Below, in pieces: positions 15,947 through 61,032 of a stretch of 64,000 nt of DNA. The position numbers were made by a program, and so were the translations under genes. Numbering within the stretch: the stretch's first letter is position 1; each line of letters starts with the position of its first letter. The DNA lies in the IMG/VR virus record IMGVR_UViG_3300031784_000002; one strand, written 5' to 3'. This DNA comes from a virus. Lineage: Duplodnaviria; Caudoviricetes. The notes beneath the pieces were generated by a model. The model saw only the letters and a program-made list of their open reading frames with translations. It was not told the origin of the DNA and did no database searches.

Positions 15947-17206
15947 ATGAAGAATTTTACTCAGTTCCTCACTGAAGCTAGAGAAACCTCTGCATCTACA
16001 GAAGCCAAGAGACTTGGTTTAACTGGAGATGGTCACGGTGGTTGGTATGATAAGAATGGAGAGTTTGTTGCAAAAACTGTTGCTGGTAAACTAAAGTTCT
16101 TTGGTAGTGACAACACTCCAGGACAAAAGGATTCCCCATCACAATCAACTGCACAAGCAACTCCACAACCTGCAGCCGCAGAAGTTCCTGCAACTGCCGC
16201 ACAACCAACGCAACAAGTTTCTGCACCTTCATCAGAACAACCTGCACAACAACAAGTTGCACCAGAACAACAACCTGAAGAAGTGCCAGTTCCAGAAGCG
16301 CCTGGTGTTGTTGTAGTATTTGGTAGATTCAATCCACCCACCATTGGTCACGAAAAACTTCTAAAGAGAGCCGCAAAGGAAGCGGAAAAGAGAGGTTACG
16401 AGTTAAGAATTTATCCTTCTAGATCACAAGACGCTAAAAAGAATCCTCTGACTCCACAAATGAAGATCTCTTACATGCGTCAGATGTTCCCTGATTATGC
16501 TGGCAGTATTGTTGACGACAAGGGTGCAAAGACTATTTTCAATGTACTCACCGGTGCAAATGGAGAAGGTCATACCAACATGATCATTATGGTTGGTCAA
16601 GATAGATTGGGGGAATTCCAAGGTTTAAGTCACAAGTATAATGGTGAACTTTATAATTATGATCAACTTGAAGTAGTTTCTGCTGGAGATAGAGATCCAG
16701 ATTCCGATGATGTAACTGGAATGTCTGCATCTAAACTTCGTCTTGCTGCAGCAGAGGGTGACTTTAAGAAGTTCGCAAAAGGTGTTCCCGATACTCTTGG
16801 TAATACTGAGAAGATGGAACTTTTCAATGTTCTTCGTAGATCTATGAATATTGAAGAGGGGACTGAAGTATGGGAAGTTGCTCCTAAACTAGATGAAGAA
16901 GCTCTTAGAGATGCATATCTAGTAGATCGCATTTATGAAGTTGGTAACCTTGTTGAAAATATGAACACCGGTCTCAAAGGAGAAGTGATTCGTAGGGGAA
17001 CAAACTATGTGATTTGTGTGAGTGAAGATGGAATCATGTTCAAATCTTGGTTGAAGGATCTTATTGAGAATCCTCATGAGATTGGTACTGATGAGTATAG
17101 AGAATACCTTCAGTCATTAACTCCAGGTCAAGAAGTTAAGAGTTACACTGGTGTAAAGATTGCATCTATTTACGATAAATTCCGTAAGGGCAAAAAGAAT
17201 AAATAA
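15947..17206 (+). CDS. HIGH-motif nucleotidyltransferase (cytidyltransferase-like) with capsid-targeting-like N-terminus
   Basis: VVFGRFNPPTIGH, VGQDR, MSASKLR; N-terminus MKNFTQFLTE-A; TAAATA at 15907. Confidence 0.85.
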   Translation: MKNFTQFLTEARETSASTEAKRLGLTGDGHGGWYDKNGEFVAKTVAGKLKFFGSDNTPGQKDSPSQSTAQATPQPAAAEVPATAAQPTQQVSAPSSEQPAQQQVAPEQQPEEVPVPEAPGVVVVFGRFNPPTIGHEKLLKRAAKEAEKRGYELRIYPSRSQDAKKNPLTPQMKISYMRQMFPDYAGSIVDDKGAKTIFNVLTGANGEGHTNMIIMVGQDRLGEFQGLSHKYNGELYNYDQLEVVSAGDRDPDSDDVTGMSASKLRLAAAEGDFKKFAKGVPDTLGNTEKMELFNVLRRSMNIEEGTEVWEVAPKLDEEALRDAYLVDRIYEVGNLVENMNTGLKGEVIRRGTNYVICVSEDGIMFKSWLKDLIENPHEIGTDEYREYLQSLTPGQEVKSYTGVKIASIYDKFRKGKKNK

Positions 17207-37234: not shown

Positions 37235-37435
37235 GTGCCAAGAGAATGGAACACCCCTAAAAGGGAGTGTTGGAATGCTCCAATCCATCAAATACTCAAA
37301 GCCATAGATAATCACACCCGACTCTGGATGGAGACGGGTGATTTTTGGCATGAGGAGCAAGCTCAAATATTACGAAATTATGTCAAAAATTTGAAAGTCT
37401 GGATACATAAAGAAGAAGGATGGTGGGATGAATGA
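37235..37435 (+). CDS. Conserved small hypothetical protein
   Basis: REWNTP.RE.WNAPIHQILKAID pattern. Confidence 0.7.
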   Translation: MPREWNTPKRECWNAPIHQILKAIDNHTRLWMETGDFWHEEQAQILRNYVKNLKVWIHKEEGWWDE

Positions 37436-38178
37436 AAAAACTCCTAATGTCAATTAGTTTATCAATGTCTTTAGTACTTCCAGTAAGTGCGAATACATTA
37501 GTCAAGAAACAACCAACCGTAAAGGCGAATAGTCTTGCGGCGATGGGATGTATGATCCTTTTGGAATGTACTGAAGGTGTAGAACAACTCACTCCACAAT
37601 CAAAAATCCTAGAAAATAAAGACTTTGACCCATTCAGAGAAGAGATCAAAGCAATTCTGACTGCGCTAGATAAAGTGAATGTCCCTGTGTATGTTGGACC
37701 ATCACGTTACTTCACTCCAAGAACTGTAGGACTATACAAACCAGAATATAATAGGTTCTTTGTGAATGAAGATCTTGCTAAAGATCCTAGAGAGTTTCTT
37801 GGAACGATGAGACATGAAGGATGGCATGTCGTTCAAGATTGTATGGGCGGTGGGATCAAAACATCTTTCATGGCACAGGTTCATCAGGATAGTGAGATCC
37901 CTGCTTGGTTGATGAAGATGACAAGAGCTTCATATGAGAGCATGGGAATGTCCCGTGCTGTGCCCTGGGAAGCAGATGCTAACTGGGCAGAAGAACAATC
38001 AAACACTACAGTCAAGCACCTAGAGATGTGTGCTAATGGTCCTCTATGGGAACAGGTGAGACCTACACCTATGACGATGGAATGGTTGATTGGTTGTGGA
38101 TGGATGAAACCACAGGAAGGTCTGTATCCATACTATCCAAACAAGAAATCAGAGTATTGTACAGAGGGTAAGTATTGA
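37432..38178 (+). CDS. Secreted zinc metallopeptidase-like protein
   Basis: Signal peptide; HEGWH (HExxH) with downstream WEADA. Confidence 0.7.
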   Translation: MKKLLMSISLSMSLVLPVSANTLVKKQPTVKANSLAAMGCMILLECTEGVEQLTPQSKILENKDFDPFREEIKAILTALDKVNVPVYVGPSRYFTPRTVGLYKPEYNRFFVNEDLAKDPREFLGTMRHEGWHVVQDCMGGGIKTSFMAQVHQDSEIPAWLMKMTRASYESMGMSRAVPWEADANWAEEQSNTTVKHLEMCANGPLWEQVRPTPMTMEWLIGCGWMKPQEGLYPYYPNKKSEYCTEGKY

Positions 38179-38694
38179 TTACCTTTTCCATTCTGCATAA
38201 ATTCTGTTATTTGTATCAATCTTTGTTTCTATACACTCAAATCCAAAATGTTTAGATAGTTCATAATGATCTTCAACATTCCAAGGATAAAAAGTTATTT
38301 TTCTACAATCTTCGTTTTGGTGATCAAATAATCCTGGATTACATCTCCAATAAATCCTTGAACTTGAATTTAATAGGTTTACAATAAGTTGAATTTGAGT
38401 TATAATTTTAGTCTTATCGCCAAAATTAATACTCCCAAGACAAAAGGCAACATCAAATTTTTGATTGGTTTCAAATTTTTCTAGGGACACTTTAAAATCA
38501 GCCTCATTAAATGCTGGATCTATTCCAATTAAATTTTTAATTTTACCTTTAAATGGATTTGGACCACAACCAACATCCAATACCCATTCATTATCAAAAA
38601 CATTATTCACTAAATTCCAACCAGAATATAGATACTGATCTAAATTGCTAGTCCATTTGGTTGCAAAGTATTCATTCAATTGTTCTTGATTCAT
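38179..38694 (-). CDS. Class I SAM-dependent methyltransferase-like protein
   Basis: VLDVGCGPN (motif I), IGIDP, FDVAFC. Confidence 0.75.
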   Translation of the reverse strand: MNQEQLNEYFATKWTSNLDQYLYSGWNLVNNVFDNEWVLDVGCGPNPFKGKIKNLIGIDPAFNEADFKVSLEKFETNQKFDVAFCLGSINFGDKTKIITQIQLIVNLLNSSSRIYWRCNPGLFDHQNEDCRKITFYPWNVEDHYELSKHFGFECIETKIDTNNRIYAEWKR

Positions 38695-38725
38695 TTAGAT
38701 TGTCCAAAATACTATTTTATATGTT

Positions 38726-39448
38726 ATGAATTATCTAGATAAAGTATATAATTTGGATTGGAAAAAATATAACGATCTTGTTTATAACTCAATATCTTTT
38801 AAATATTTTCCAAAAGAAGAATTTGAAATTGAGACTATAACACCTGTAGATATTCTTTATGAATTGGAAGAAGAAAAAATAATTTATATACCAATTTCAA
38901 AAAATGCTTCTACATCAATTACAAATTCTTTAAACTTTAGACCAGTAACTACTTTTGTGCCCCCAAATTCTAAATTTTATCTAGATTATATAGATATCCC
39001 CGAAAAGTATAGAAGTGGTTATAAGTTTTTAGTCATTACTAGAGATCCGCAAAAAAGGTGGATTTCTGGAATAAATGAATTTTTGAATGAAAGGCCAGAT
39101 TTTGATGAGGATGATATAAAATCCTATGATAAATTTATCATAGAACTAAAAAATAATAAATTTATATTTGACTGCCATACTAGACCGCAATTTTCATGGA
39201 TAGATTTTTGTTTTAGATATGATCTTGATATAACTTTTTTAAAACTTGATGAAAATTTGAATGAAAAAATATCAAACATATTGGGAAGACAAGTCACAAT
39301 AAATCACTATAATCCTATTCAAAAGTATGAATCAAAAATAAAAAATTATAAATTTTGTTATGATATTTTAACTAAGTATTGTATGAAAAATAAAAATTTT
39401 TTAAATTTACATGAGATGGATTTTTATCTCTATAATAATTCTCTTTAA
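38726..39448 (+). CDS. Sulfotransferase family 2-like protein
   Basis: IYIPISKNASTSI (5'-PSB), ITRDPQKRWISG (3'-PB), HTRPQ. Confidence 0.8.
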   Translation: MNYLDKVYNLDWKKYNDLVYNSISFKYFPKEEFEIETITPVDILYELEEEKIIYIPISKNASTSITNSLNFRPVTTFVPPNSKFYLDYIDIPEKYRSGYKFLVITRDPQKRWISGINEFLNERPDFDEDDIKSYDKFIIELKNNKFIFDCHTRPQFSWIDFCFRYDLDITFLKLDENLNEKISNILGRQVTINHYNPIQKYESKIKNYKFCYDILTKYCMKNKNFLNLHEMDFYLYNNSL

Positions 39449-39453
39449 TAATT

Positions 39454-40029
39454 GTGTATTTACCTAATAGAATATTTTTTACTGGAGTTCCTGGATCCCG
39501 TTGGAGTGGTATCGCACAGACGTTAGAAACGATGTCTGGTATGAATACCTCTGACCGCACACCTGAGCGTGAATACGTTCATCATAGTTATACTGGACAC
39601 AGAGGAGCGTATTTTGGACCTGGTATGGAGTTTGAACCAATTCTTGATCCAGATTATATTGATCAGGCATGGATTGAACCTCAGGGATGCAAACTTATTA
39701 AAAGTCATGAATGGTCTTATTATCTAGATCAAATACAAAAGAAGTTTCCTAATGATCGGATATTAATGGTATATCGTCCAGATATGGTTAGTTATGCTTG
39801 GTGGCATGAAGCTGGAGGATTTCAAATTCAATATCCAAATTATAGTGCATATAAAAACAGTGGCACAATGTTAAGTGAGATCATGAAACAAAATTCTTGT
39901 ATGTTAGAATTTGGGATGTTAAATAAATGTAAGTGGGAATACTTTACATCTGAATGGATATACAATAATTTTGGACAAAGTATTGTAGTTAATAAAACAT
40001 TTTCGGACATCTTGGTTACATTGATATGA
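39454..40029 (+). CDS. P-loop/sulfotransferase-like protein
   Basis: IFFTGVPGSRWSG, LIKSH, LMVYRP pattern. Confidence 0.55.
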   Translation: MYLPNRIFFTGVPGSRWSGIAQTLETMSGMNTSDRTPEREYVHHSYTGHRGAYFGPGMEFEPILDPDYIDQAWIEPQGCKLIKSHEWSYYLDQIQKKFPNDRILMVYRPDMVSYAWWHEAGGFQIQYPNYSAYKNSGTMLSEIMKQNSCMLEFGMLNKCKWEYFTSEWIYNNFGQSIVVNKTFSDILVTLI

Positions 40030-40988
40030 CTAATAACAATATTTTAATTGGACATTTGGGTTGGGATGGATGTCATTTTTTGGGAGCTTGTCTCACTATG
40101 AGTGACAAAGTGTATTTTAATAATTGTACTCTTCGCGGCAAAGTGGAGTATTATCATAAAAATATGTCTGACATTAGTTGGGTAAACGGTGAACCCATCT
40201 GGTCAGATGTTTTTATGTTTTATGGTACTTCCTATGAGACAGATGGACATATTCATTATCGACATGCATGGTGTAATGATCCCAATCATCACCCTGAACA
40301 GTTTTCATCGGATTATGGATTAAAACAAAAAATTAGAATATCTAGATTACACGTACCCGTATATTATCCATTAAAAGAAATGTTGGAAAAAAATATTTCA
40401 CATCCAATGATGGACATGTTTAAGTGCAAATATTTTATTTGTTTAATGAATACAAGTCTTTTTTGTACACTAAGATCTATAAAAGTTGAACATGATGATA
40501 ACGTTGGTGTTAGTTGGGATAATGGACATGCTCCAATTCCAGATATGAAATGGTTTTCTGGGCCATTAACAGAAATAGATAAGTTAACAAATTCGTTAAC
40601 TGTTAGTGGATTTCAAAAATTATCAGAAGAATCACAAAAAAGAATTAAAGATCATCACAATAAAAACTTAGATCATTTGTTTAATCTAACTAAATTAAAC
40701 AAATCGGATAATGATTTATTAAAGACAATGATTACACATCAGTGGGATTGTAATTGGTTCTTAAATGAAGATGAAACTATTAACGGTCTTAAAGTTTTAT
40801 ATTCTGAGATGAAATTAGGCAAATTAAATGAAAATTTAATACGTAAAATGTATAGAATTTGGATTAACAAAATAGATTTCATTAAAAATTGGTATGTATT
40901 GAATGGATTTTCTAATGATGATGTGGAAGTAGTAAAAGTTAAATCTACAGATATGACTCCAATAAACCAGGAAATGTTTATGAAATAA
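40026..40988 (+). CDS. Hypothetical protein (possible divergent P-loop fold)
   Basis: ILIGHLGWDGCHFL N-terminal strand-loop; ATGA-coupled. Confidence 0.6.
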   Translation: MTNNNILIGHLGWDGCHFLGACLTMSDKVYFNNCTLRGKVEYYHKNMSDISWVNGEPIWSDVFMFYGTSYETDGHIHYRHAWCNDPNHHPEQFSSDYGLKQKIRISRLHVPVYYPLKEMLEKNISHPMMDMFKCKYFICLMNTSLFCTLRSIKVEHDDNVGVSWDNGHAPIPDMKWFSGPLTEIDKLTNSLTVSGFQKLSEESQKRIKDHHNKNLDHLFNLTKLNKSDNDLLKTMITHQWDCNWFLNEDETINGLKVLYSEMKLGKLNENLIRKMYRIWINKIDFIKNWYVLNGFSNDDVEVVKVKSTDMTPINQEMFMK

Positions 40989-41061
40989 AAATATTATAGT
41001 TTTTACAAAAAGAGTTTAAGTCTTTGTAAATACCAAATATAAATAATTGCAAGTATATAAC

Positions 41062-41736
41062 ATGAATAAAATGTTAACAGGAAAAGAATTCGTAAATAAA
41101 ATTAAAAAAGATAACGCTGAACTTTTTGAACAATCTCGTTTGAATGTTCGTCGTTTCTTTGATTCAAATCCAAGTAAAGAACATATGGTCAATCATTTCC
41201 GTGGTCGTATGGTAAACGAAGCAATGAACATGAAGGCAATCGCTGCTGAGGTTGCTTCTGCTCCTGCATCTATGGATGTTACCGAACTTGAATTATTAAC
41301 AAAACAAGCACAAGATGAAGCAAAACACTTCCGTATGGTTAAGGAAGTAATTGAACATATCTCTGGTGAGAAGGTAGATGTTGATGCTGCTTTCGCTGCA
41401 GAAGCTGCATCGCCCCAGGCTAAGGGTGCCACTCTCCTAGATAAGTATGAAGCATCATCTGACCCCGCTGCTCTTGCTGCATACCAACTCGTCGCTGAGG
41501 GTCGTGCAGAGGCAGTATGGAACGAAATGGCTGAGTGTGTAGAAGATGAGTTTATTTCTTCTCGTTACGCTGCTATTGCTAAAGACGAAGGTTTCCATGC
41601 CAACATTGGTGGTTGGAAACTTGAAAAACTTGTAGAAGGTGCTGCAGAAGTTCAAGAACGTATTTTAGAAATGGTAGATCAAATGCGTGTTGATCTTCTT
41701 GAAATTAGCAATAAAAATACTGCCATTGCTGTCTGA
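41062..41736 (+). CDS. Ferritin-like di-iron carboxylate protein
   Basis: E(NEA)...DEAKH...E(AEG)...DEGFH ligand set; TATAAATA at 41038. Confidence 0.8.
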   Translation: MNKMLTGKEFVNKIKKDNAELFEQSRLNVRRFFDSNPSKEHMVNHFRGRMVNEAMNMKAIAAEVASAPASMDVTELELLTKQAQDEAKHFRMVKEVIEHISGEKVDVDAAFAAEAASPQAKGATLLDKYEASSDPAALAAYQLVAEGRAEAVWNEMAECVEDEFISSRYAAIAKDEGFHANIGGWKLEKLVEGAAEVQERILEMVDQMRVDLLEISNKNTAIAV

Positions 41737-41752
41737 TAATTAATAATATATT

Positions 41753-42007
41753 ATGAGTACTCTTGAAACAAGGCGCCGCAAAGATAAAACTCGTGTAATC
41801 AAATGGGTTAGTGCTTGTACAATACTCATCGCAATGGTGTTTCATGTACTGGGACTAACCCCTTGGAATAGCATCCTACAACTAATCGGAGCATCTGGTT
41901 GGACTTATGTGGGATTTAAGTGGAAAGAACGTTCAATTATAATGAACTTCCTTCCACAATTTTTTATTATCATACCAGGATTAATTTATTTGTTATTTCT
42001 AAAATGA
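41753..42007 (+). CDS. Small three-TM membrane protein
   Basis: Three hydrophobic segments in 84 aa. Confidence 0.75.
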   Translation: MSTLETRRRKDKTRVIKWVSACTILIAMVFHVLGLTPWNSILQLIGASGWTYVGFKWKERSIIMNFLPQFFIIIPGLIYLLFLK

Positions 42008-42624
42008 AAAAAATGGTAATTCTTACTGGACCACAAGGGTCTGGTAATCATCTTTGGTCTAAAATATTTTCACTTCATCCTGAAGTATTCGGGTGGAAGA
42101 CTTTACTTGAAAACTATTGGGAAGCACATAGATTTGCTGAACCATTTTGTGAGTATTGGAAAGATCCTTCAAGACTCAAAGATTTTGATTGGTCTACTCA
42201 CGACTATTTTTTTACAAGTATTAGTGTTCCTCTCGGTATCCAAGAGAAAAAGTGGGAACCAAATATTATGTTATTTGCCAATGAAGTCAAAAAACTTGGC
42301 ATCGAAGCTCAAATATTGGTAATTGGTAGAGATCAAAACATTCTTAGACATCAGCAAAATCGTCTTAGAAAAGAAAATACCTTGACTCTGTTCATGAATC
42401 AACTGCCTACATTTACTAATCCAATCTTCTTAAGTTATGAATTGTTATATCTTTATAAACAAGAGTATTTAAAAAGTTTAGATCTCAACATTCCAATTGC
42501 TTGGGATGATTCTAGGGTAGATAAAATTTTGTCCAATGACCCTAATGATAAATACGTCCATCATGTGGAAGAATATTTCTTAGATAATTGCAACAAAACT
42601 GGCATACCTCTTAAGTCATTATGA
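42004..42624 (+). CDS. P-loop/sulfotransferase-like protein (paralog 1)
   Basis: ILTGPQGSGNHLWSKIF, IGRDQN; start at the ATGA overlap. Confidence 0.65.
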   Translation: MKKMVILTGPQGSGNHLWSKIFSLHPEVFGWKTLLENYWEAHRFAEPFCEYWKDPSRLKDFDWSTHDYFFTSISVPLGIQEKKWEPNIMLFANEVKKLGIEAQILVIGRDQNILRHQQNRLRKENTLTLFMNQLPTFTNPIFLSYELLYLYKQEYLKSLDLNIPIAWDDSRVDKILSNDPNDKYVHHVEEYFLDNCNKTGIPLKSL

Positions 42625-43277
42625 AGAAACTAGTAATTATTACAGGTCCACAAGGATCTGGTAATCATTTTTTTAGTAGAGTTTTTAGTACTCACCCCAA
42701 AGTGGGTGGATGGAAATCTCTTTTAGATAAGTATTGGGTTCCAAGTGATGAAGAATATTTTGCTAAGTATTGGGTAAATCCGGAGGAACTATCGGAGAAT
42801 GATTTTAGGGGATATGACTATTGGTTGGCAAATGTAAGTTGCCCATTTTATTATGATGGAGTAAGATATATTCCAAAGGTTCGAGAATTTGCAGAAAAAG
42901 CCCAGTCTTTAGGAATTGATGTTCAAATTTGTATAATTGTACGAGACCAAAACATCAATTCAGAACAACAAAAAAGAGTACGTGGTGAGGTAACTTTGCC
43001 AATCGCAATGCATTACTATCAAAATAACATAATTGGAAAAAATTTTAAAGTTCATTTTTTAGATAATGAAGCATTTTTCCTTCACAAACAATATTATTTA
43101 AAGTGGATAAGTGAACTACTAGATTTTCCCATTGACTATAATAATCCCGATATTTTCAAATTCATTACTGAAGATCCCAATAAAAAATATATTAAATATG
43201 TTAGTGAACATTGGTTAGATAAATCAGTATGGGATGGCATTAAGCCAAAAACAGATAGAAACATCAAAATGGTATGA
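42621..43277 (+). CDS. P-loop/sulfotransferase-like protein (paralog 2)
   Basis: IITGPQGSGNHFFSRVF, IVRDQN; alignable by eye to the preceding ORF. Confidence 0.65.
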   Translation: MKKLVIITGPQGSGNHFFSRVFSTHPKVGGWKSLLDKYWVPSDEEYFAKYWVNPEELSENDFRGYDYWLANVSCPFYYDGVRYIPKVREFAEKAQSLGIDVQICIIVRDQNINSEQQKRVRGEVTLPIAMHYYQNNIIGKNFKVHFLDNEAFFLHKQYYLKWISELLDFPIDYNNPDIFKFITEDPNKKYIKYVSEHWLDKSVWDGIKPKTDRNIKMV

Positions 43278-44662
43278 TTGATATGAACAAGACTTTTTGC
43301 ATGGCTCCATGGACTCACATGAACATTGGTCCTAACGGAGATGTTTATCCATGTTGTATGATGCCTATAACTGGCACAGAAGGAATTCCTGATGAAAAGA
43401 AAAAAGAACCTCCTATAATTGTTGATACAGATAATCTAGATGATGAGTATGATCTGGATGGTTTGAAAGAACTTATTGGCAGTATGCAAGAAATTGCTGA
43501 GCCAATAAATCCTTTGGAAATTGTTGCTACTGAATGTGAAGGGACTCCAAGAGATTTTAAAATGGGTTCTCTCCTAGATGAATCACTAAAAGACATCTGG
43601 AACGGTGAGAAGATGAGAGAACTTCGTAGAAACATGATAGCAGGTGAAAAGTGCAGTTATTGTACATCATGTTATAAAGAGGAAGAAATCGGTCATGGAT
43701 CTCTAAGACTTCACATGAATAAGACGTATGCAAAACATTATGACTACGTTAAAGAAACTAAAGAAGACGGAACCTTTGATAGATTCAATCTGGTCTACTG
43801 GGATTTCAGATTAAATAATATCTGCAACTTTAAATGTAGAATGTGTAGTCCTGGGTACAGTAGTGCTTGGGAACAAGAGATGAGAAAAGAATTCAATATT
43901 GAAGGTGAGTATCCCAAAATTGATGTAGATATGGTGCATCAAGATATCGAACCTCTCTACGATATTGTAGAAGAAGTTTATTTTGCTGGAGGTGAACCTC
44001 TAATTTCAGATCACCATTACAAGATTCTACGCAAATTAATTCAGAAAAAGAGAAACACTGTCGTTAGATTGTCATACAATACCAACTTCAGTACACTAAA
44101 ATATAAGAACAATAATGTTCTAGACCTATGGAAAAAATTTCCGAATCTTTCTTTATCTGTAAGCTTTGATGGTACAGAAAAAAGAGGAGAACTAATTCGA
44201 AAAGGATTCGATTGGCAAAAGTTTCTGGATAATTTTAGATTGTTTAGAAGTAAGTTTCCCCATACAAGCGTAAAGATCAACTACGTTTTCCAGGCTTTGA
44301 ATTGTTTTCATGCCATGGATGCTCATAGAGAACTTTATTTAAGAGGAATTATTACTGACTGGAATGACTTCTCTTTGTGCATCTTACATAATCCGGATTA
44401 TATGTCGGTTCTAATTCTTGATTCCGAATCAAGGAGATTGTTGGGCCAAAAGATTAAATATCATATTGAAAATTATCTTGCTCCAGCAAAAGCTCATGAG
44501 TCCATTAAACAATACATTTCTGTTCTCAAACTTTTGTCTGAAGAGAAGAGAGATCATCTAGTTCCATACTTCAAATCTTATATGTCTGCACTAGATTCCA
44601 TAAGAAACGAAAATTCTCTAGAAATTTTTCCTGAACTAGAAAGGATTTTGAGCGATGATTGA
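43274..44662 (+). CDS. Radical SAM enzyme with N-terminal twitch/SPASM domain
   Basis: FCMAPW...GDVYPCC...CSYCTSC; core CNFKCRMC (CX3CX2C); YFAGGEP. Confidence 0.9.
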   Translation: MIDMNKTFCMAPWTHMNIGPNGDVYPCCMMPITGTEGIPDEKKKEPPIIVDTDNLDDEYDLDGLKELIGSMQEIAEPINPLEIVATECEGTPRDFKMGSLLDESLKDIWNGEKMRELRRNMIAGEKCSYCTSCYKEEEIGHGSLRLHMNKTYAKHYDYVKETKEDGTFDRFNLVYWDFRLNNICNFKCRMCSPGYSSAWEQEMRKEFNIEGEYPKIDVDMVHQDIEPLYDIVEEVYFAGGEPLISDHHYKILRKLIQKKRNTVVRLSYNTNFSTLKYKNNNVLDLWKKFPNLSLSVSFDGTEKRGELIRKGFDWQKFLDNFRLFRSKFPHTSVKINYVFQALNCFHAMDAHRELYLRGIITDWNDFSLCILHNPDYMSVLILDSESRRLLGQKIKYHIENYLAPAKAHESIKQYISVLKLLSEEKRDHLVPYFKSYMSALDSIRNENSLEIFPELERILSDD

Positions 44663-45890
44663 TAAGAAAAAAATTAAAACAAAGGGTGAAGTTTTTTGTA
44701 TAGCCCCTTGGTTAGCTCTAGACATTCGACAAGATGGTGAAGTTAAACCATGTTGTGTTTCTGAGTATACTTATGGGGATATTAAAGAAAAGCCTTTATG
44801 GGAAATCTGGAATGATGAGCCAATAAGAAAACTCCGCGAGAATATGATTAATGAAATACCTAGCGAAAGTTGTCAGGTATGTTATAATAATCAAGCTGCA
44901 GGAAAAAGTTCCTTAAGACAAGATCTCATTAATAATTTGTTCTATGAAAATAGAAAGTTAGTATATGGTACAAATGATGATTACACTGTTAATGAACCTG
45001 GATTTGTTTGGTGGGACTTAAAACTCAGCAACAAATGCAATTTCAAATGTAGAATGTGTAGTTGGACCTCAAGCTCTACTTTTGAATTAGAACAAAATGG
45101 TGTAATCTCTGGTAGATGGAACGCATCTGAAAAAACTTATGAAGAGACTGAACCCTACCTTAATATGGTAAAACACCTATATTTTTCTGGAGGTGAATCT
45201 TTAATTATAGATGAACATTGGAAAATACTTGATAAACTAATTGAGTTAGGTAGAAATGATAAAGTTACTTTAGCTTACAATAGTAACTTTAGTAATCTTG
45301 TTTATAAAGGTAGACACATTTTTGATATGTGGGATAAGTTCAACAAGAGTGTAGAAGTACACATTAGCGTTGACGGTATTGGATCAAGAGGTGAGTTAAT
45401 CCGAAAAGGATTCAATTGGGATAGATTTGTATCTCATGCGGAGCAGTTCAGAGAAAGATTCAAAAATAAACCAATTACACATGAATTGCATTTTGATTGT
45501 ACAGTCCAAGCGTTAAACATTTTTGAAGTAGTTAAGTTGCATCAATATTTGTATAATAGTGGACTGATGAAGGATATAGATTTTTTCTTCTTAAACTTTA
45601 TGCAATATCCAAGAGAAATGTCCGTTTGGATTTTAGATAAAAAAACAAAGGAAACAGCAAAAGAAAATATAAGAAATCATATTGACAATTTCTTAATTCC
45701 TAATGGTTCAAAAAGGTCTGTAATATTCTATGAAAGTCTGATAAAGTATATTGATTTATATCAGGAACAACTTTTAATTCCAGAATTCTTGAAGTCAATG
45801 AGAAAATTTGACAAATTGAGGAATGAAAATGTAGTGGAAACTTTCCCAGAACTTCAAAGAATATGGAACGTAATTAAAAAGAAAGCCTAG
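44655..45890 (+). CDS. Radical SAM enzyme with N-terminal twitch/SPASM domain (paralog)
   Basis: FCIAPW...GEVKPCC...SCQVC; CNFKCRMC; YFSGGES. Confidence 0.9.
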   Translation: MIDKKKIKTKGEVFCIAPWLALDIRQDGEVKPCCVSEYTYGDIKEKPLWEIWNDEPIRKLRENMINEIPSESCQVCYNNQAAGKSSLRQDLINNLFYENRKLVYGTNDDYTVNEPGFVWWDLKLSNKCNFKCRMCSWTSSSTFELEQNGVISGRWNASEKTYEETEPYLNMVKHLYFSGGESLIIDEHWKILDKLIELGRNDKVTLAYNSNFSNLVYKGRHIFDMWDKFNKSVEVHISVDGIGSRGELIRKGFNWDRFVSHAEQFRERFKNKPITHELHFDCTVQALNIFEVVKLHQYLYNSGLMKDIDFFFLNFMQYPREMSVWILDKKTKETAKENIRNHIDNFLIPNGSKRSVIFYESLIKYIDLYQEQLLIPEFLKSMRKFDKLRNENVVETFPELQRIWNVIKKKA

Positions 45891-58198: not shown

Positions 58199-58270
58199 CC
58201 TCTGGTAGTCTATTGGTAAGGACAGGCAGACAATGCACTTGGAAACTAGGTTCGATTCCTAGACAGAGGT
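58199..58270 (+). pseudogene. tRNA-like element with intact acceptor, D and T arms but non-canonical anticodon arm
   Basis: CCTCTG/CAGAGG; TAGTCTATTGGTAAGGAC; CTAGG-TTCGATT-CCTAG; no 5-bp stem with a 7-nt loop in the anticodon position. Confidence 0.65.
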
Positions 58271-58559: not shown

Positions 58560-59513
58560 ATGGAAATAAATGTATATAATAAATTCGGTGATGTAGTTAA
58601 ATCAATTGATCTTAAAGACTCTATTGAATACATTGATGGTAGAGTTTATAAAGGAGATAAATTTTACTACAAAGGTATAGGAGTTCCATATCAATTTCAT
58701 CATATTCATCCAGACGACATGACTGATGAGTATGATTTTATTGACGTATGCGATGTTTTTTATATTGGTAATTTAGTTTCGAAAAAAGTCTTCGCAGGAA
58801 AGACTGGAATATTCCAAGAAAAATATCAAACTCATTTTACTGATTGGATAGGTGCTTGTGGTGTAAAGGAACTCAACATATTTGAAAATTTATATGATGA
58901 GAGTGGATTTGAATTCAGTGCAATTGAAGTTTTTGAATATCAAATTATTGATGAACAAAATCAACAATATTATTTGAAGGTTGATTATCCAGAAGGTAGA
59001 AATAATTACTTAACGAGTCCTGATCCAAAAAAACTTAGGCTTCTTTTGGACTATATGATTCAAAATGATTGGAACTTTCCTTGGGATAAAAATTGTCTTA
59101 CAGATATTAACTCAGAATCTAAAATAACTGACGTAGCTGATATCTTTAAGTCCTCAGATATTTCTCATAAGATTGGAACAGTTTATGCTTTGTTGCATAG
59201 TCTTTATCAAAATGATCAAAATGCATACTTTGAATTTTGTGAATCAAATTCTTTAATGCACTATAATAGAATGAGTTTTATTCTTAATACTCTTTCTATT
59301 CTTCAATATAATAATGTAGATGTTGGTCATTTATATTCAACAACTCCGGTTGAAACTTATAGAAATATAATTTATAATTACTTGATTACTGGAAAAAATT
59401 GTGGTTTCTGTGGAGTTGGTAGTTGTAAAGGAAGAAAGGATTCTAATGAATCTTATGGGGAGGAAATTCGAAACGAATATATTAAAATGGCTAAAGTTCA
59501 ATTGAACTTATAA
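58560..59513 (+). CDS. Hypothetical protein with C-terminal CxxCxxxxC
   Basis: 317 aa AT-rich ORF; CGFCGVGSC near the C-terminus. Confidence 0.75.
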   Translation: MEINVYNKFGDVVKSIDLKDSIEYIDGRVYKGDKFYYKGIGVPYQFHHIHPDDMTDEYDFIDVCDVFYIGNLVSKKVFAGKTGIFQEKYQTHFTDWIGACGVKELNIFENLYDESGFEFSAIEVFEYQIIDEQNQQYYLKVDYPEGRNNYLTSPDPKKLRLLLDYMIQNDWNFPWDKNCLTDINSESKITDVADIFKSSDISHKIGTVYALLHSLYQNDQNAYFEFCESNSLMHYNRMSFILNTLSILQYNNVDVGHLYSTTPVETYRNIIYNYLITGKNCGFCGVGSCKGRKDSNESYGEEIRNEYIKMAKVQLNL

Positions 59514-59532: not shown

Positions 59533-60057
59533 ATGGAAACACTTTATAAACTACTTTCTGATACTCAATCGAGTCTTTTTGTCTTATTTCATAAGACTTG
59601 GGCTTATCATTGGAATGTAGTTGGAGAAGATTTTCCTCAACTTCATACTCTTTTTGGTGGTCAGTATGAGACTATGTTTGAAGAGATTGATCGTATCTCT
59701 GAACACATGAGATTTTTAAATGTAAAACCACTTAATAGTTTAGAAAGAATTCTAGAAGTTTCAAAAATTAAAACAGGTCAAAGTACAACAGATTGCCATA
59801 AGATGGTTAAGGATCTGTTGAAGTCAAATCAAGATCTTTGTGAACTTCTTACTGAGGTTGCTGAAGAAGCTGATGAACAAAAGTCAAGAGCAACTTCAAA
59901 TCTTGCAGACGATCTAAACGAAACTCATGGTAAATTTGTTTGGATGTTAAGGTCTTATTTAGAATCTTCACCTGGATTGAAAGAAGAGGTAGTTGAGATT
60001 GAAGAAACTGAGGAACAAATCACCGAAGAAATTGTAGAAGAAACTATTGAAGATTGA
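59533..60057 (+). CDS. dps: Dps (DNA-binding ferritin-like stress protein)
   Basis: KTWAYHWNVVG.DF.QLH.LF..QY...EEIDRISEH, H.K..WML ferroxidase signature; TATAAATA at 59508. Confidence 0.92.
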   Translation: METLYKLLSDTQSSLFVLFHKTWAYHWNVVGEDFPQLHTLFGGQYETMFEEIDRISEHMRFLNVKPLNSLERILEVSKIKTGQSTTDCHKMVKDLLKSNQDLCELLTEVAEEADEQKSRATSNLADDLNETHGKFVWMLRSYLESSPGLKEEVVEIEETEEQITEEIVEETIED

Positions 60058-60073
60058 TTAAAGGTACAGTACA

Positions 60074-60325
60074 ATGTTAAGAGTAAGATGTAAGGTGTGT
60101 AACACCGAGTTGGAGTCGCATCCAACTAAATCAGTATGTTGTGGATGTGATAATATGACACTTGTGAAGGGAGACACTATTACTGCTGTTGACCTAAACC
60201 AGGTTGTCATGTTAAACTCCATAAAAGAAAACAAGAATTCTGGTGTACTCAGTGCATCGGATCTTGCATATCAAGAGTCCAGAAGAGCTCGTAAAGTTCG
60301 TAAACTGGATTTTGAGGTAAAGTAA
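60074..60325 (+). CDS. Zn-ribbon small protein
   Basis: CKVC...CCGCDN. Confidence 0.75.
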   Translation: MLRVRCKVCNTELESHPTKSVCCGCDNMTLVKGDTITAVDLNQVVMLNSIKENKNSGVLSASDLAYQESRRARKVRKLDFEVK

Positions 60326-61032
60326 TGTACCAAGAAGATTTGAATCCTTATAATTCTTCTGAATATGAAAAATTTTTTAAAACTACTTTATTATACAAAA
60401 AAATCAGTAAAAATTATGATCTAGTTTCTTTTGATAATGATTTAATGCAAATTATTAATGGACTCACTACAAGAACAGTTTTATCTTTATCTATTCTCGA
60501 TGCAGCACCATTTTATTATTTGCAATATTTGACTGACTTAAATCCATCAAAAATATATGATATTGGATGTAGAGCAAATTTATTTAAAAAGTATGTTCCA
60601 AATCTAATTGGAATTGATGTTTTAGCTGCAAAAAAAGATCGAGATGCAAATGCTGATGAATATCTAAAAATAAATAATCGTTTTTATGAAGAAAATTTTG
60701 AAACAATGGAAGCAGCTTTTGCAATAAATTCATTTCATTTTTTTCCTCTTAAAAAAATTAGAGAAAGAGTGATTCAGTTTTCTTCTTTAATTTCTAAAGG
60801 TGGTAGAGGTTGGATTACTTTTAATGCAGCAATAATGTTAGAACGTCAAGTTAAATCAAAAATTAGATTAAATTCTAAAAATATACCTGAGGAAGAAGTT
60901 GAGAAACTTGAAAAATTTGTGAGAAAAGAATTGTACGATTTGCCATTTAAATTAGAAGTTTTTGAGTGTACTATAAATAAAGAACTTGATTCTCCTTTAA
61001 CTGGTAATGTACGAATTCTTTTCACAAAATAA
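60325..61032 (+). CDS. Methyltransferase-like protein, homologous to the 38179 ORF
   Basis: YDIGCRANLFKKYVPNLIGIDV versus LDVGCGPNPFKGKIKNLIGIDP. Confidence 0.65.
   Translation: MYQEDLNPYNSSEYEKFFKTTLLYKKISKNYDLVSFDNDLMQIINGLTTRTVLSLSILDAAPFYYLQYLTDLNPSKIYDIGCRANLFKKYVPNLIGIDVLAAKKDRDANADEYLKINNRFYEENFETMEAAFAINSFHFFPLKKIRERVIQFSSLISKGGRGWITFNAAIMLERQVKSKIRLNSKNIPEEEVEKLEKFVRKELYDLPFKLEVFECTINKELDSPLTGNVRILFTK

Follow-up and report, generated by a model that had tools for sequence, protein, structure and literature searches.

The island at positions 38179-45890 of virus record IMGVR_UViG_3300031784_000002 (IMG/VR; Duplodnaviria, Caudoviricetes) raises the question of whether a compact run of enzyme genes in a phage genome encodes one pathway and, if it does, what that pathway acts upon. 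The whole stretch of DNA analysed, 64,000 nucleotides long and referred to here as the window, comes from a widespread, uncultured T4-like cyanomyovirus of freshwater. Its genes include those for gp43 polymerase, gp41 helicase, gp61 primase, NrdAB, talC and gnd, and in the gp43 polymerase it shares 84.7% identity with Synechococcus phage S-SCSM2R and 74% with S-SSM7. An original prediction, made from the letters of the DNA, had read the island as nine contiguous genes that form a pathway rather than a set of isolated auxiliary metabolic genes. All of the open reading frames (ORFs) were confirmed and they are contiguous, but they number ten intact genes (designated A to J) instead of nine. The predicted ATGA coupling is present as start/stop overlaps at C/D, F/G, G/H and H/I, and I and J overlap by 8 nt. 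The stretch is nevertheless composite and not a single pathway: E, G, H and A, usually together with C, form a functional unit, and to this fixed core are joined the variable genes B, D, I and J. The pathway reading is therefore retained for the core and abandoned for B, D and the twin radical S-adenosylmethionine (SAM) enzymes, I and J. For the core we propose, tentatively and with somewhat less than an even chance of being right, a late hydroxylation followed by sulfation and then methylation of a surface molecule.

The functional unit is apparent from the neighbourhoods in which the core genes occur. Querying with H yielded 31 viral loci, and 80 were retained from a search with an E profile; co-occurrence was scored in the 45 loci with 3 kb or more of sequence to either side of E, of which 17 are of a freshwater type and 28 of a marine type. 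G/H genes stand beside E in every one of the 45 loci, in at least two copies in 44 of them, and A is found in 41. The two types, of which the marine one represents a distant T4-like lineage, differ in gene order. Freshwater-type loci run A (minus strand), C, (D, zero to six copies), E, F, (D), G, (D) and H, often followed by I and J or by a carbamoyltransferase gene. Marine-type loci run (fibre-like ORF), (C C), A, E, H and G (both on the minus strand), (fibre-like ORF), gp13/14 and gp15, with C duplicated upstream of A. D is limited to the freshwater type, and I and J occur in 7-11 of its 17 loci and in none of the 28 of marine type, whilst B is absent from all 45. The fixed co-occurrence by which the original prediction proposed to judge the island was thus found for G/H and A and not for B, D, I or J. 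C and F are commoner companions of the core, although not invariable ones. Fusion provides a second line of evidence: in the database protein P0131, encoded on one 10.4-kb contig, a G/H domain is joined to an A-type domain (hhalign probability 99.9%, E 1e-31). Because E, G, H and A remain linked in two gene orders, and because this fusion exists, the core can be regarded as a unit. Another protein, P0162 (470 aa), consists of a G/H domain and an unidentified 270-aa extension; the possibility that this C-terminal extension corresponds to D was rejected, as profile comparison gave no match. Other genes are on occasion inserted within the module. A class I glutamine amidotransferase/peptidase C26 gene (class I GATase) lies between E and G in the most divergent relative, L030 (L030:8731-9363), and in one marine-type locus genes for an ATP-grasp-like protein, a 379-aa protein of unknown function and a TRAP-type solute-binding protein (DctP, E 6e-46) lie between H and G (L079:2524-5706).

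The recurrence of the island is far beyond chance. Its genes were found again in more than 100 viral contigs, and DNA nearly identical to the E-H part (41047-43277) turned up in 18 sequencing runs, which represent no fewer than 11 studies of freshwater or lakes. Homologs of H number about 1200 and those of E, marine ones included, more than 2600. Deposited phages, in contrast, gave no match to the island by megablast; tblastn of E and H against 50,697 deposited phage genomes recovered no homolog, and A-H have no match in PHROGs. Between the freshwater and marine types, identity is 73-86% for E, 61-66% for G, 50-54% for H, 36-46% for A and 25-34% for C. By comparison, the gp15 encoded next to the marine-type module shares only 45-48% identity with its counterparts in cultured cyanophages, amongst them the closest cultured relative of the phage studied here. 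Since gp15 is more divergent than E, G and H, the module must be under very strong constraint or have moved between lineages.

The chemistry proposed for the core depends above all on G (42004-42624) and H (42621-43277), both on the plus strand. The original prediction described them as two paralogous GPQGSGNH proteins, and this is borne out: G is an ancient paralog of H, the two are 41% identical, and their alignment contains about 40 invariant residues. These include a TGPQGxGNH loop (TGPQGSGNH in H) and a segment RDxNI...QQxRxR. The label of twin P-loop proteins fared less well. An AlphaFold2 model of H (predicted local distance difference test score, pLDDT, 89.4) has TPST1 as its best Foldseek match (E 5e-6). 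In VIA-align its top 12 rows are all sulfotransferases (Z 11.1-8.9, with 160-183 of 218 residues aligned), amongst them the olefin-synthase sulfotransferase, TPST1/2, 3-OST5, STF9 and NDST. P-loop kinases rank lower, with fewer residues aligned. On this model H carries the sulfotransferase alpha/beta fold, an outcome that answers the suggestion that structure prediction be used to separate folds binding 3'-phosphoadenosine 5'-phosphosulfate (PAPS) from kinase P-loops. A kinase fold for G and H was rejected, as sulfotransferases match H better and the Walker A Lys is replaced by Asn. In H the loop would represent a non-canonical 5'-phosphosulfate-binding (PSB) loop. The invariant R108-D-x-N-I...Q116-Q117-x-R-x-R lies at the expected place of the 3'-phosphate-binding (3'PB) segment, in which no invariant Ser was identified. 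The family is closed, comprising 249 representative clusters; a G/H profile found nothing significant amongst PDB sequences, and G has no Pfam match. G and H probably act together.

That the same proteins might instead serve a modification of nucleic acid, either phage DNA bases or tRNAs, with E as a MiaE-like hydroxylase and G and H as MiaA- or kinase-like P-loop proteins, is extremely unlikely. The window does contain 17 tRNA genes, isopentenyltransferases and MiaA appear amongst the structural matches of H (Z 8.7-7.5), and the DNA hypermodification clusters of other phages combine P-loop kinases with radical SAM enzymes. However, sulfotransferases rank above these matches of H, with more residues aligned, G and H have no Walker A Lys, and E does not match MiaE. 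Furthermore, the neighbours scanned included no glycosylase, thymidylate-synthase-like or DNA-transferase gene, and the module lies in the late structural region, apart from the replication genes. Of the substrates that the original prediction offered as options, modified DNA or nucleotides rank last.

A second alternative arises from the PSB loop itself. The position of the catalytic Lys/Arg, placed by motif register, is occupied by Gln in 23 of 23 aligned G/H sequences. As this residue is replaced by Gln in G and H, and by Gly in D, sulfotransfer by these three proteins is only putative. They could be catalytically dead factors for binding, assembly or chaperoning, for example of fibres, with sulfate transfer performed by B alone where it is present. 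The loss of the PSB Lys/Arg from all G/H and D sequences, the constant pairing of G with H and the setting of the module amongst fibre genes are all compatible with such a role. Yet the polar residues amongst those invariant in G/H are clustered in the loop and the 3'PB-like segment, a pattern usual in active sites. G and H also co-occur with an intact metallo-enzyme and with a methyltransferase-like protein, to which a G/H domain is fused in one case. A purely non-catalytic role is therefore considered very unlikely.

The metallo-enzyme in question is E (41047/41062-41736, plus strand), the most conserved member of the core. Its candidate metal ligands, E53, E86xxH89, E146 and E176xxH179, are invariant in 11 sequences with identities down to 59%, and this E / ExxH / E / ExxH pattern identifies E as a predicted ferritin-like di-iron carboxylate protein. 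The di-iron assignment of the original prediction is upheld by this complete ligand set, although the Pfam matches of E (PaaA_PaaC, Ferritin_2 and ribonucleotide reductase small subunit) are weak and all below threshold. The best scores to named families are 18.1 bits for PaaA_PaaC, against a threshold of 28.5, and 17.3 bits for R2lox, against 194. Profile searches with E gave no match to MiaE or to aldehyde deformylating oxygenase, and against PDB sequences only a weak match to a VlmB homolog (E 0.047), with nothing significant. Judged by its homologs, E constitutes a very conserved and almost purely viral family of its own. Upstream of it, at 41038-41045 on the plus strand, lies a T4-type late-promoter-like motif, TATAAATA, located 16 nt 5' of the E ATG. 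The motif is conserved: in 67 of 73 loci (92%) NTAAATA is found no more than 60 nt upstream of E, whereas the genes A, C, D and G/H have it in 2-11% of cases and other ORFs in 31%. By likeness to the late promoters of T4 and of cyanophages, E would thus be a late gene.

A (38179-38694, minus strand; 171 aa) is a small class-I SAM methyltransferase-like protein. Motif I, VLDVGCGxNPF, and the sequence IGIDP are invariant in its family, and from these motifs alone it is taken to be a putative methyltransferase. The SAM methyltransferase of the original prediction is consequently upheld at the level of motif I but not by any significant profile match: A reaches Methyltransf_31 in Pfam at only E 0.082, its family profile has no match amongst PDB sequences, and the A-type domain of P0131 matches Methyltransf_11 at E 0.0036. 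C (39454-40029, plus strand; 191 aa), a frequent companion of the core, is probably sulfotransferase-like. It carries the motifs GVPGSRWS and YRPDxxSYxWW, which are PSB- and 3'PB-like, one member of its family matches Sulfotransfer_3 (E 0.0055), and a protein atlas leads towards a Sulfotransfer_3/1 cluster; C itself has no Pfam match and its family profile found nothing significant amongst PDB sequences. F (41753-42007, plus strand) is a small membrane protein of family DUF6552 (PF20189; 51.7 bits against a cut-off of 27, E 1.1e-13, positions 5-75 of 78), with hydropathy peaks near residues 16-38 and 61-84. It occurs in freshwater-type loci only, and a literature search on DUF6552 found no direct precedent.

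The proposal for the core builds on intact genes and on the fixed association of E, G, H and A, to which the G/H-A fusion adds; on the sulfotransferase fold of H and the motifs seen in B; and on the late-promoter-like motif conserved before E. From there we infer every chemical step, the use of PAPS, the order of the steps and the acceptor. E, presumably expressed from its own late promoter, would act first and hydroxylate the acceptor at a late stage of infection. Sulfate from host PAPS would then be transferred by the G/H pair, with help or variation from C, B and D, after which A would methylate the acceptor. This acceptor would be a surface molecule linked to adsorption, the first choice being fibre or virion proteins of the phage, or a decoration on them.

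The predicted fold of H and the affinities of E also permit a reading in which the product or target of the module is a small molecule or lipid, such as a hydroxylated or sulfated lipid derived from acyl-CoA or acyl-acyl carrier protein (acyl-ACP), an olefin or a peptide-like metabolite, and in which the G/H fold may bind the 3'-phospho-ADP of CoA instead of PAPS. The weak matches of E, to PaaA (of the CoA-ester epoxidase family), R2-like ligand-binding oxidase and a VlmB homolog, are to proteins that act on small molecules or lipids. In addition, one of the tied-best structural matches of H (4gox, Z 11.1) is an olefin-synthase sulfotransferase domain acting on acyl-ACP, and dephospho-CoA kinases are amongst the matches of D. 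The absence of the catalytic Lys/Arg from G and H, and the insertion of a class I GATase or ATP-grasp-like gene within the module in relatives, can be counted on the same side. Nevertheless, no carrier protein, thioesterase, non-ribosomal peptide synthetase, polyketide synthase (PKS) or transporter was present amongst the ORFs scanned around the module, and its location in the late structural block, together with the late-promoter-like motif, suits morphogenesis better. This reading is accordingly held to be unlikely.

For the proposed modification of a surface molecule, the surroundings of the module offer clues as to both sulfate donor and acceptor. In L030, whose H is 59% identical, an APS-kinase-family gene (APS, adenosine 5'-phosphosulfate; 46 bits against a cut-off of 21) is situated two genes past the C homolog; its coordinates are L030:11804-12367, and a single unknown ORF of 223 aa separates the two. 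Synechococcus elongatus, the control genome of the APS kinase search, has an APS kinase, and a cyanobacterial host could therefore supply PAPS. As regards the acceptor, one family of 86 ORFs near the module is spread over 51 loci, and the one member tested proved to contain the N-terminal domain of annotated tail-fibre/collagen-like tail proteins. The marine-type module directly precedes the gp13/14 and gp15 genes, and the window itself has a fibre gene 5 kb downstream. That the tail fibre is the acceptor is nonetheless doubtful. The fullest version of the idea is that aquatic T4-like phages edit their own adsorption apparatus: E, a Gln-loop G/H heterodimer and A would sulfate and methylate tail-fibre residues late in infection, and the swappable D, B and radical SAM proteins would vary the pattern, with effects on host range or against receptor masking. 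The probability assigned to this version is decidedly low. Literature searches on phage sulfotransferases and on fibre sulfation found no direct precedent.

The freshwater neighbourhoods give a different picture. There, a NodU-type carbamoyltransferase gene follows H in several relatives, and GT2, DegT fragments, 2-oxoglutarate (2OG) oxygenases and a further radical SAM enzyme are encoded close by. The carbamoyltransferase, of the NodU/CmcH type and 474 aa in length, directly follows H at L022:10903-12327 and L018:10805-12229, and in L025 the H frame continues into a DegT/DnrJ aminotransferase fragment (437 aa). Such surroundings would fit enzymes that remodel the envelope of the infected picocyanobacterium, that is, its lipopolysaccharide (LPS), O-antigen or sulfated exopolysaccharide, and so block superinfection or alter aggregation rather than modify the virion. 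Cyanobacteria produce sulfated exopolysaccharides. F is a membrane protein, the many variable D paralogs recall acceptor-specific glycan sulfotransferases, and the carbohydrate sulfotransferases 3-OST5, NDST and STF9 score only slightly below TPST as matches of H. This role is, however, improbable. D, I and J are nearby in none of the 28 marine-type loci. The few other marine-type neighbours that were scanned lack a glycosyltransferase, with fibre-like, neck and sheath genes prominent instead. No flippase or polymerase was seen, and the late-promoter-like motif at E would place expression at a poor time to protect a cell nearing lysis.

A number of points weigh against sulfation of a virion component by the core. 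Gln occupies the position in G and H at which every characterised PAPS sulfotransferase has a catalytic Lys/Arg, and D has Gly there; moreover, profile-profile comparison amongst A, B, C, D, E and G/H finds no relationship. To our knowledge, ferritin-like di-iron oxygenases take small molecules, acyl carriers or CoA esters, lipids or tRNA as substrates, and not proteins or glycans. An APS kinase gene was present in just one of ten records; the other nine are mostly fragments, and five of them, viral records added later, are fragments without exception. The sugar enzymes adjoining the module in related freshwater loci indicate a glycan acceptor rather than a protein, and the proximity of fibre genes may reflect a mere recombination hot spot. 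Finally, the evidence of expression consists of a few low-depth contigs from two lake RNA libraries, short exact pieces over E, G and I only, which are possibly DNA carry-over and are not counted here as a finding.

The remaining genes of the island are best described as swappable accessories. B (38726-39448, plus strand; 240 aa) is rare and, at 23% GC, has the lowest GC content. It has no Pfam match at E 0.05, but six of 39 homologs (39-56% identical) carry a precomputed match to PF03567 (Sulfotransfer_2). Invariant in the family are the PSB Lys59 (PIxKNASTS), the 3'PB residues Arg106 and Ser114 (TRDPxxRWxSG) and His151. Through its homologs and these residues, B can be recognised as a probable canonical relative of Sulfotransfer_2, in agreement with the original prediction. 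D (40026-40988, plus strand) belongs to an expanded and highly divergent paralog family, present in 0-6 copies per phage, with conserved ends and a variable middle. The motifs GxGGxFL..CL.LSD, FxNxxLFxxLR and WDxNWYLSED are shared by 28 paralogs. Neither D (no Pfam match) nor the 28 paralogs (none of note) could be placed in Pfam, and Foldseek gave no significant match for D. The top nine VIA-align rows of its AlphaFold2 model (pLDDT 82) are all sulfotransferases, at Z scores of only 6.3-5.8, a weak match to that fold; dephospho-CoA kinases also occur amongst the structural matches. The AT-rich character attributed to the whole island is marked only in A (28.5% GC), B and D (29%), and does not extend to E, which at 40% exceeds the window (37.6%). 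In lake metagenome run X7, the flanks formed by A and by E-H are covered about 27-fold, whilst window positions 39069-40900 (B-D) are almost uncovered. This hints at co-existing strains with a different cassette at B-D, but neither the gap in cover nor a single weak joint that jumps from 39167 to 41029 in the same run is counted as a finding.

The radical SAM genes I (43274-44662) and J (44655-45890), both on the plus strand, encode the paralogous N-terminal-twitch enzymes that had been predicted. They match NF033640 (N_Twi_rSAM) over its full length (I, model positions 1-397, 368.4 bits; J, 2-397, 328.7 bits; cut-off 170) and are 38% identical to each other. The Cx3Cx2C cluster, CNFKCRMC, is found at residue 184 of I and residue 128 of J. 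Further Cys residues lie towards the N-terminus, at positions 9, 27, 28, 127, 130 and 133 of I and 15, 33, 34, 73 and 76 of J; both proteins have an N-terminal SPASM match in Pfam, and the N-terminal region of I contains about 55 residues that are absent from J. In complete or large relatives, N_Twi_rSAM genes are located from 15 to more than 85 kb away from the core, and the twin genes of the window are for this reason regarded as an accessory cassette that abuts it. A scan of genome contigs with J found three loci only. A metagenome-assembled genome of Bacteriovoracia (G001) has five N_Twi_rSAM genes above the cut-off, three of which share one 9-kb contig, C80 (L033), with two of these in tandem. 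Their neighbours (TPR, pilin-like N_methyl, histidine kinase and MBL) are uninformative as to function, and no assayed reaction of the family was found in the literature searched.

Several other features of the window deserve mention. Immediately upstream of the island, positions 37432-38178 encode a protein of 248 aa whose N-terminus is signal-like and which contains an HEGWH (HExxH) motif. It is retained at about 40% identity across hundreds of cultured cyanophages, in which it is annotated only as hypothetical. When the syntenic site was sought in cultured relatives by means of this upstream gene, distant matches only were obtained. A second AT-rich patch (29-30% GC) is located at 59533-61032, within the tRNA region. 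It encodes a true ferritin (59533-60057; PF00210, E 1e-22) and a 235-aa paralog of A (60325-61032; HMM E 3.8e-9), and TATAAATA motifs also occur at 59509 and 60972. The tRNA genes are arranged in two blocks between 56544 and 61212 and include an odd tRNA-His with anticodon ATG at 58199-58270 (ARAGORN). The replication region (852-1985; 15947-17206) encodes a CbbQ/NorQ-type AAA+ (MoxR-like) ATPase and a 419-aa cytidyltransferase-like protein.

In aquatic metagenomes the core genes occur in great abundance, they are more conserved than a structural gene that adjoins them, and E, G, H, C, D and A fall outside any described protein family. The division into core and accessory genes narrows the focus to four or five small soluble proteins. 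If the proposal is correct, sulfation, and with it a sulfotransferase active site that dispenses with Lys/Arg, would be added to the means by which phages tune their surfaces, and the N_Twi_rSAM family would gain a biological setting. Should Gln-loop G/H proteins indeed sulfate the fibre, the phage would be the first with a sulfated virion, and G and H would add a new catalytic variant to the sulfotransferase fold.

Amongst known systems, the nearest in logic are predicted bacterial and phage operons that combine a hydroxylase, a sulfotransferase and a methyltransferase, in some cases with a PAPS synthetase (Iyer, Abhiman, de Souza and Aravind, 2010; PMC2938197). These operons were proposed, as a prediction only, to act on tail-collar or collagen-like proteins. 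The present module similarly encodes a predicted oxygenase, sulfotransferase-fold proteins and a methyltransferase-like protein together, with candidate fibre-like proteins alongside and, in one relative only, a PAPS-making enzyme. In both cases the logic would be to hydroxylate, and then to sulfate or methylate the new hydroxyl. The oxygenase of those operons, however, is a 2OG-Fe(II) double-stranded beta-helix enzyme, whereas here it would be a ferritin-like di-iron protein, 2OG oxygenases being variable neighbours in some relatives only. Furthermore, the core sulfotransferase-fold proteins of the module are orphan families without the catalytic Lys/Arg.

Comparisons for the individual proteins point in more than one direction. 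Human TPST1/2 occupy ranks 2-4 amongst the structural matches of H (Z 11.1-10.5, 172-183 residues), tied with the first. The TPSTs and the bacterial RaxST, which acts on RaxX, sulfate proteins bound for the surface, and the dimers formed by TPSTs are a possible parallel to the obligate pair of G and H. Nevertheless, identity between H and the TPSTs is only 12-13%, with no match at the level of sequence, and the PSB Arg78 of TPST2 corresponds to Gln11 of H. The sulfotransferase domains of olefin synthase and CurM (4gox, 4gbm) are likewise a tied-best match of H (Z 11.1, root-mean-square deviation 3.5, 170 residues). The olefin synthase domain is cyanobacterial and acts once a hydroxyl has been installed, but it belongs to a PKS module that also comprises an ACP and a thioesterase, none of which is present here. 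Since the scores of carbohydrate and acyl-ACP sulfotransferases fall little short of those of TPSTs, the class of acceptor cannot be read from the fold of H. E shares with PaaA, R2-like ligand-binding oxidase and the AurF/VlmB-type N-oxygenases the four-helix-bundle ligand pattern described above, yet its matches to them are all below the family thresholds. Tandem N_Twi_rSAM copies are found also in the Bacteriovoracia genome, and the two copies here are not tied to the core. Compared with the predicted operons of PMC2938197, this module is set apart by the class of its oxygenase and by its orphan Gln-loop sulfotransferase-fold proteins.

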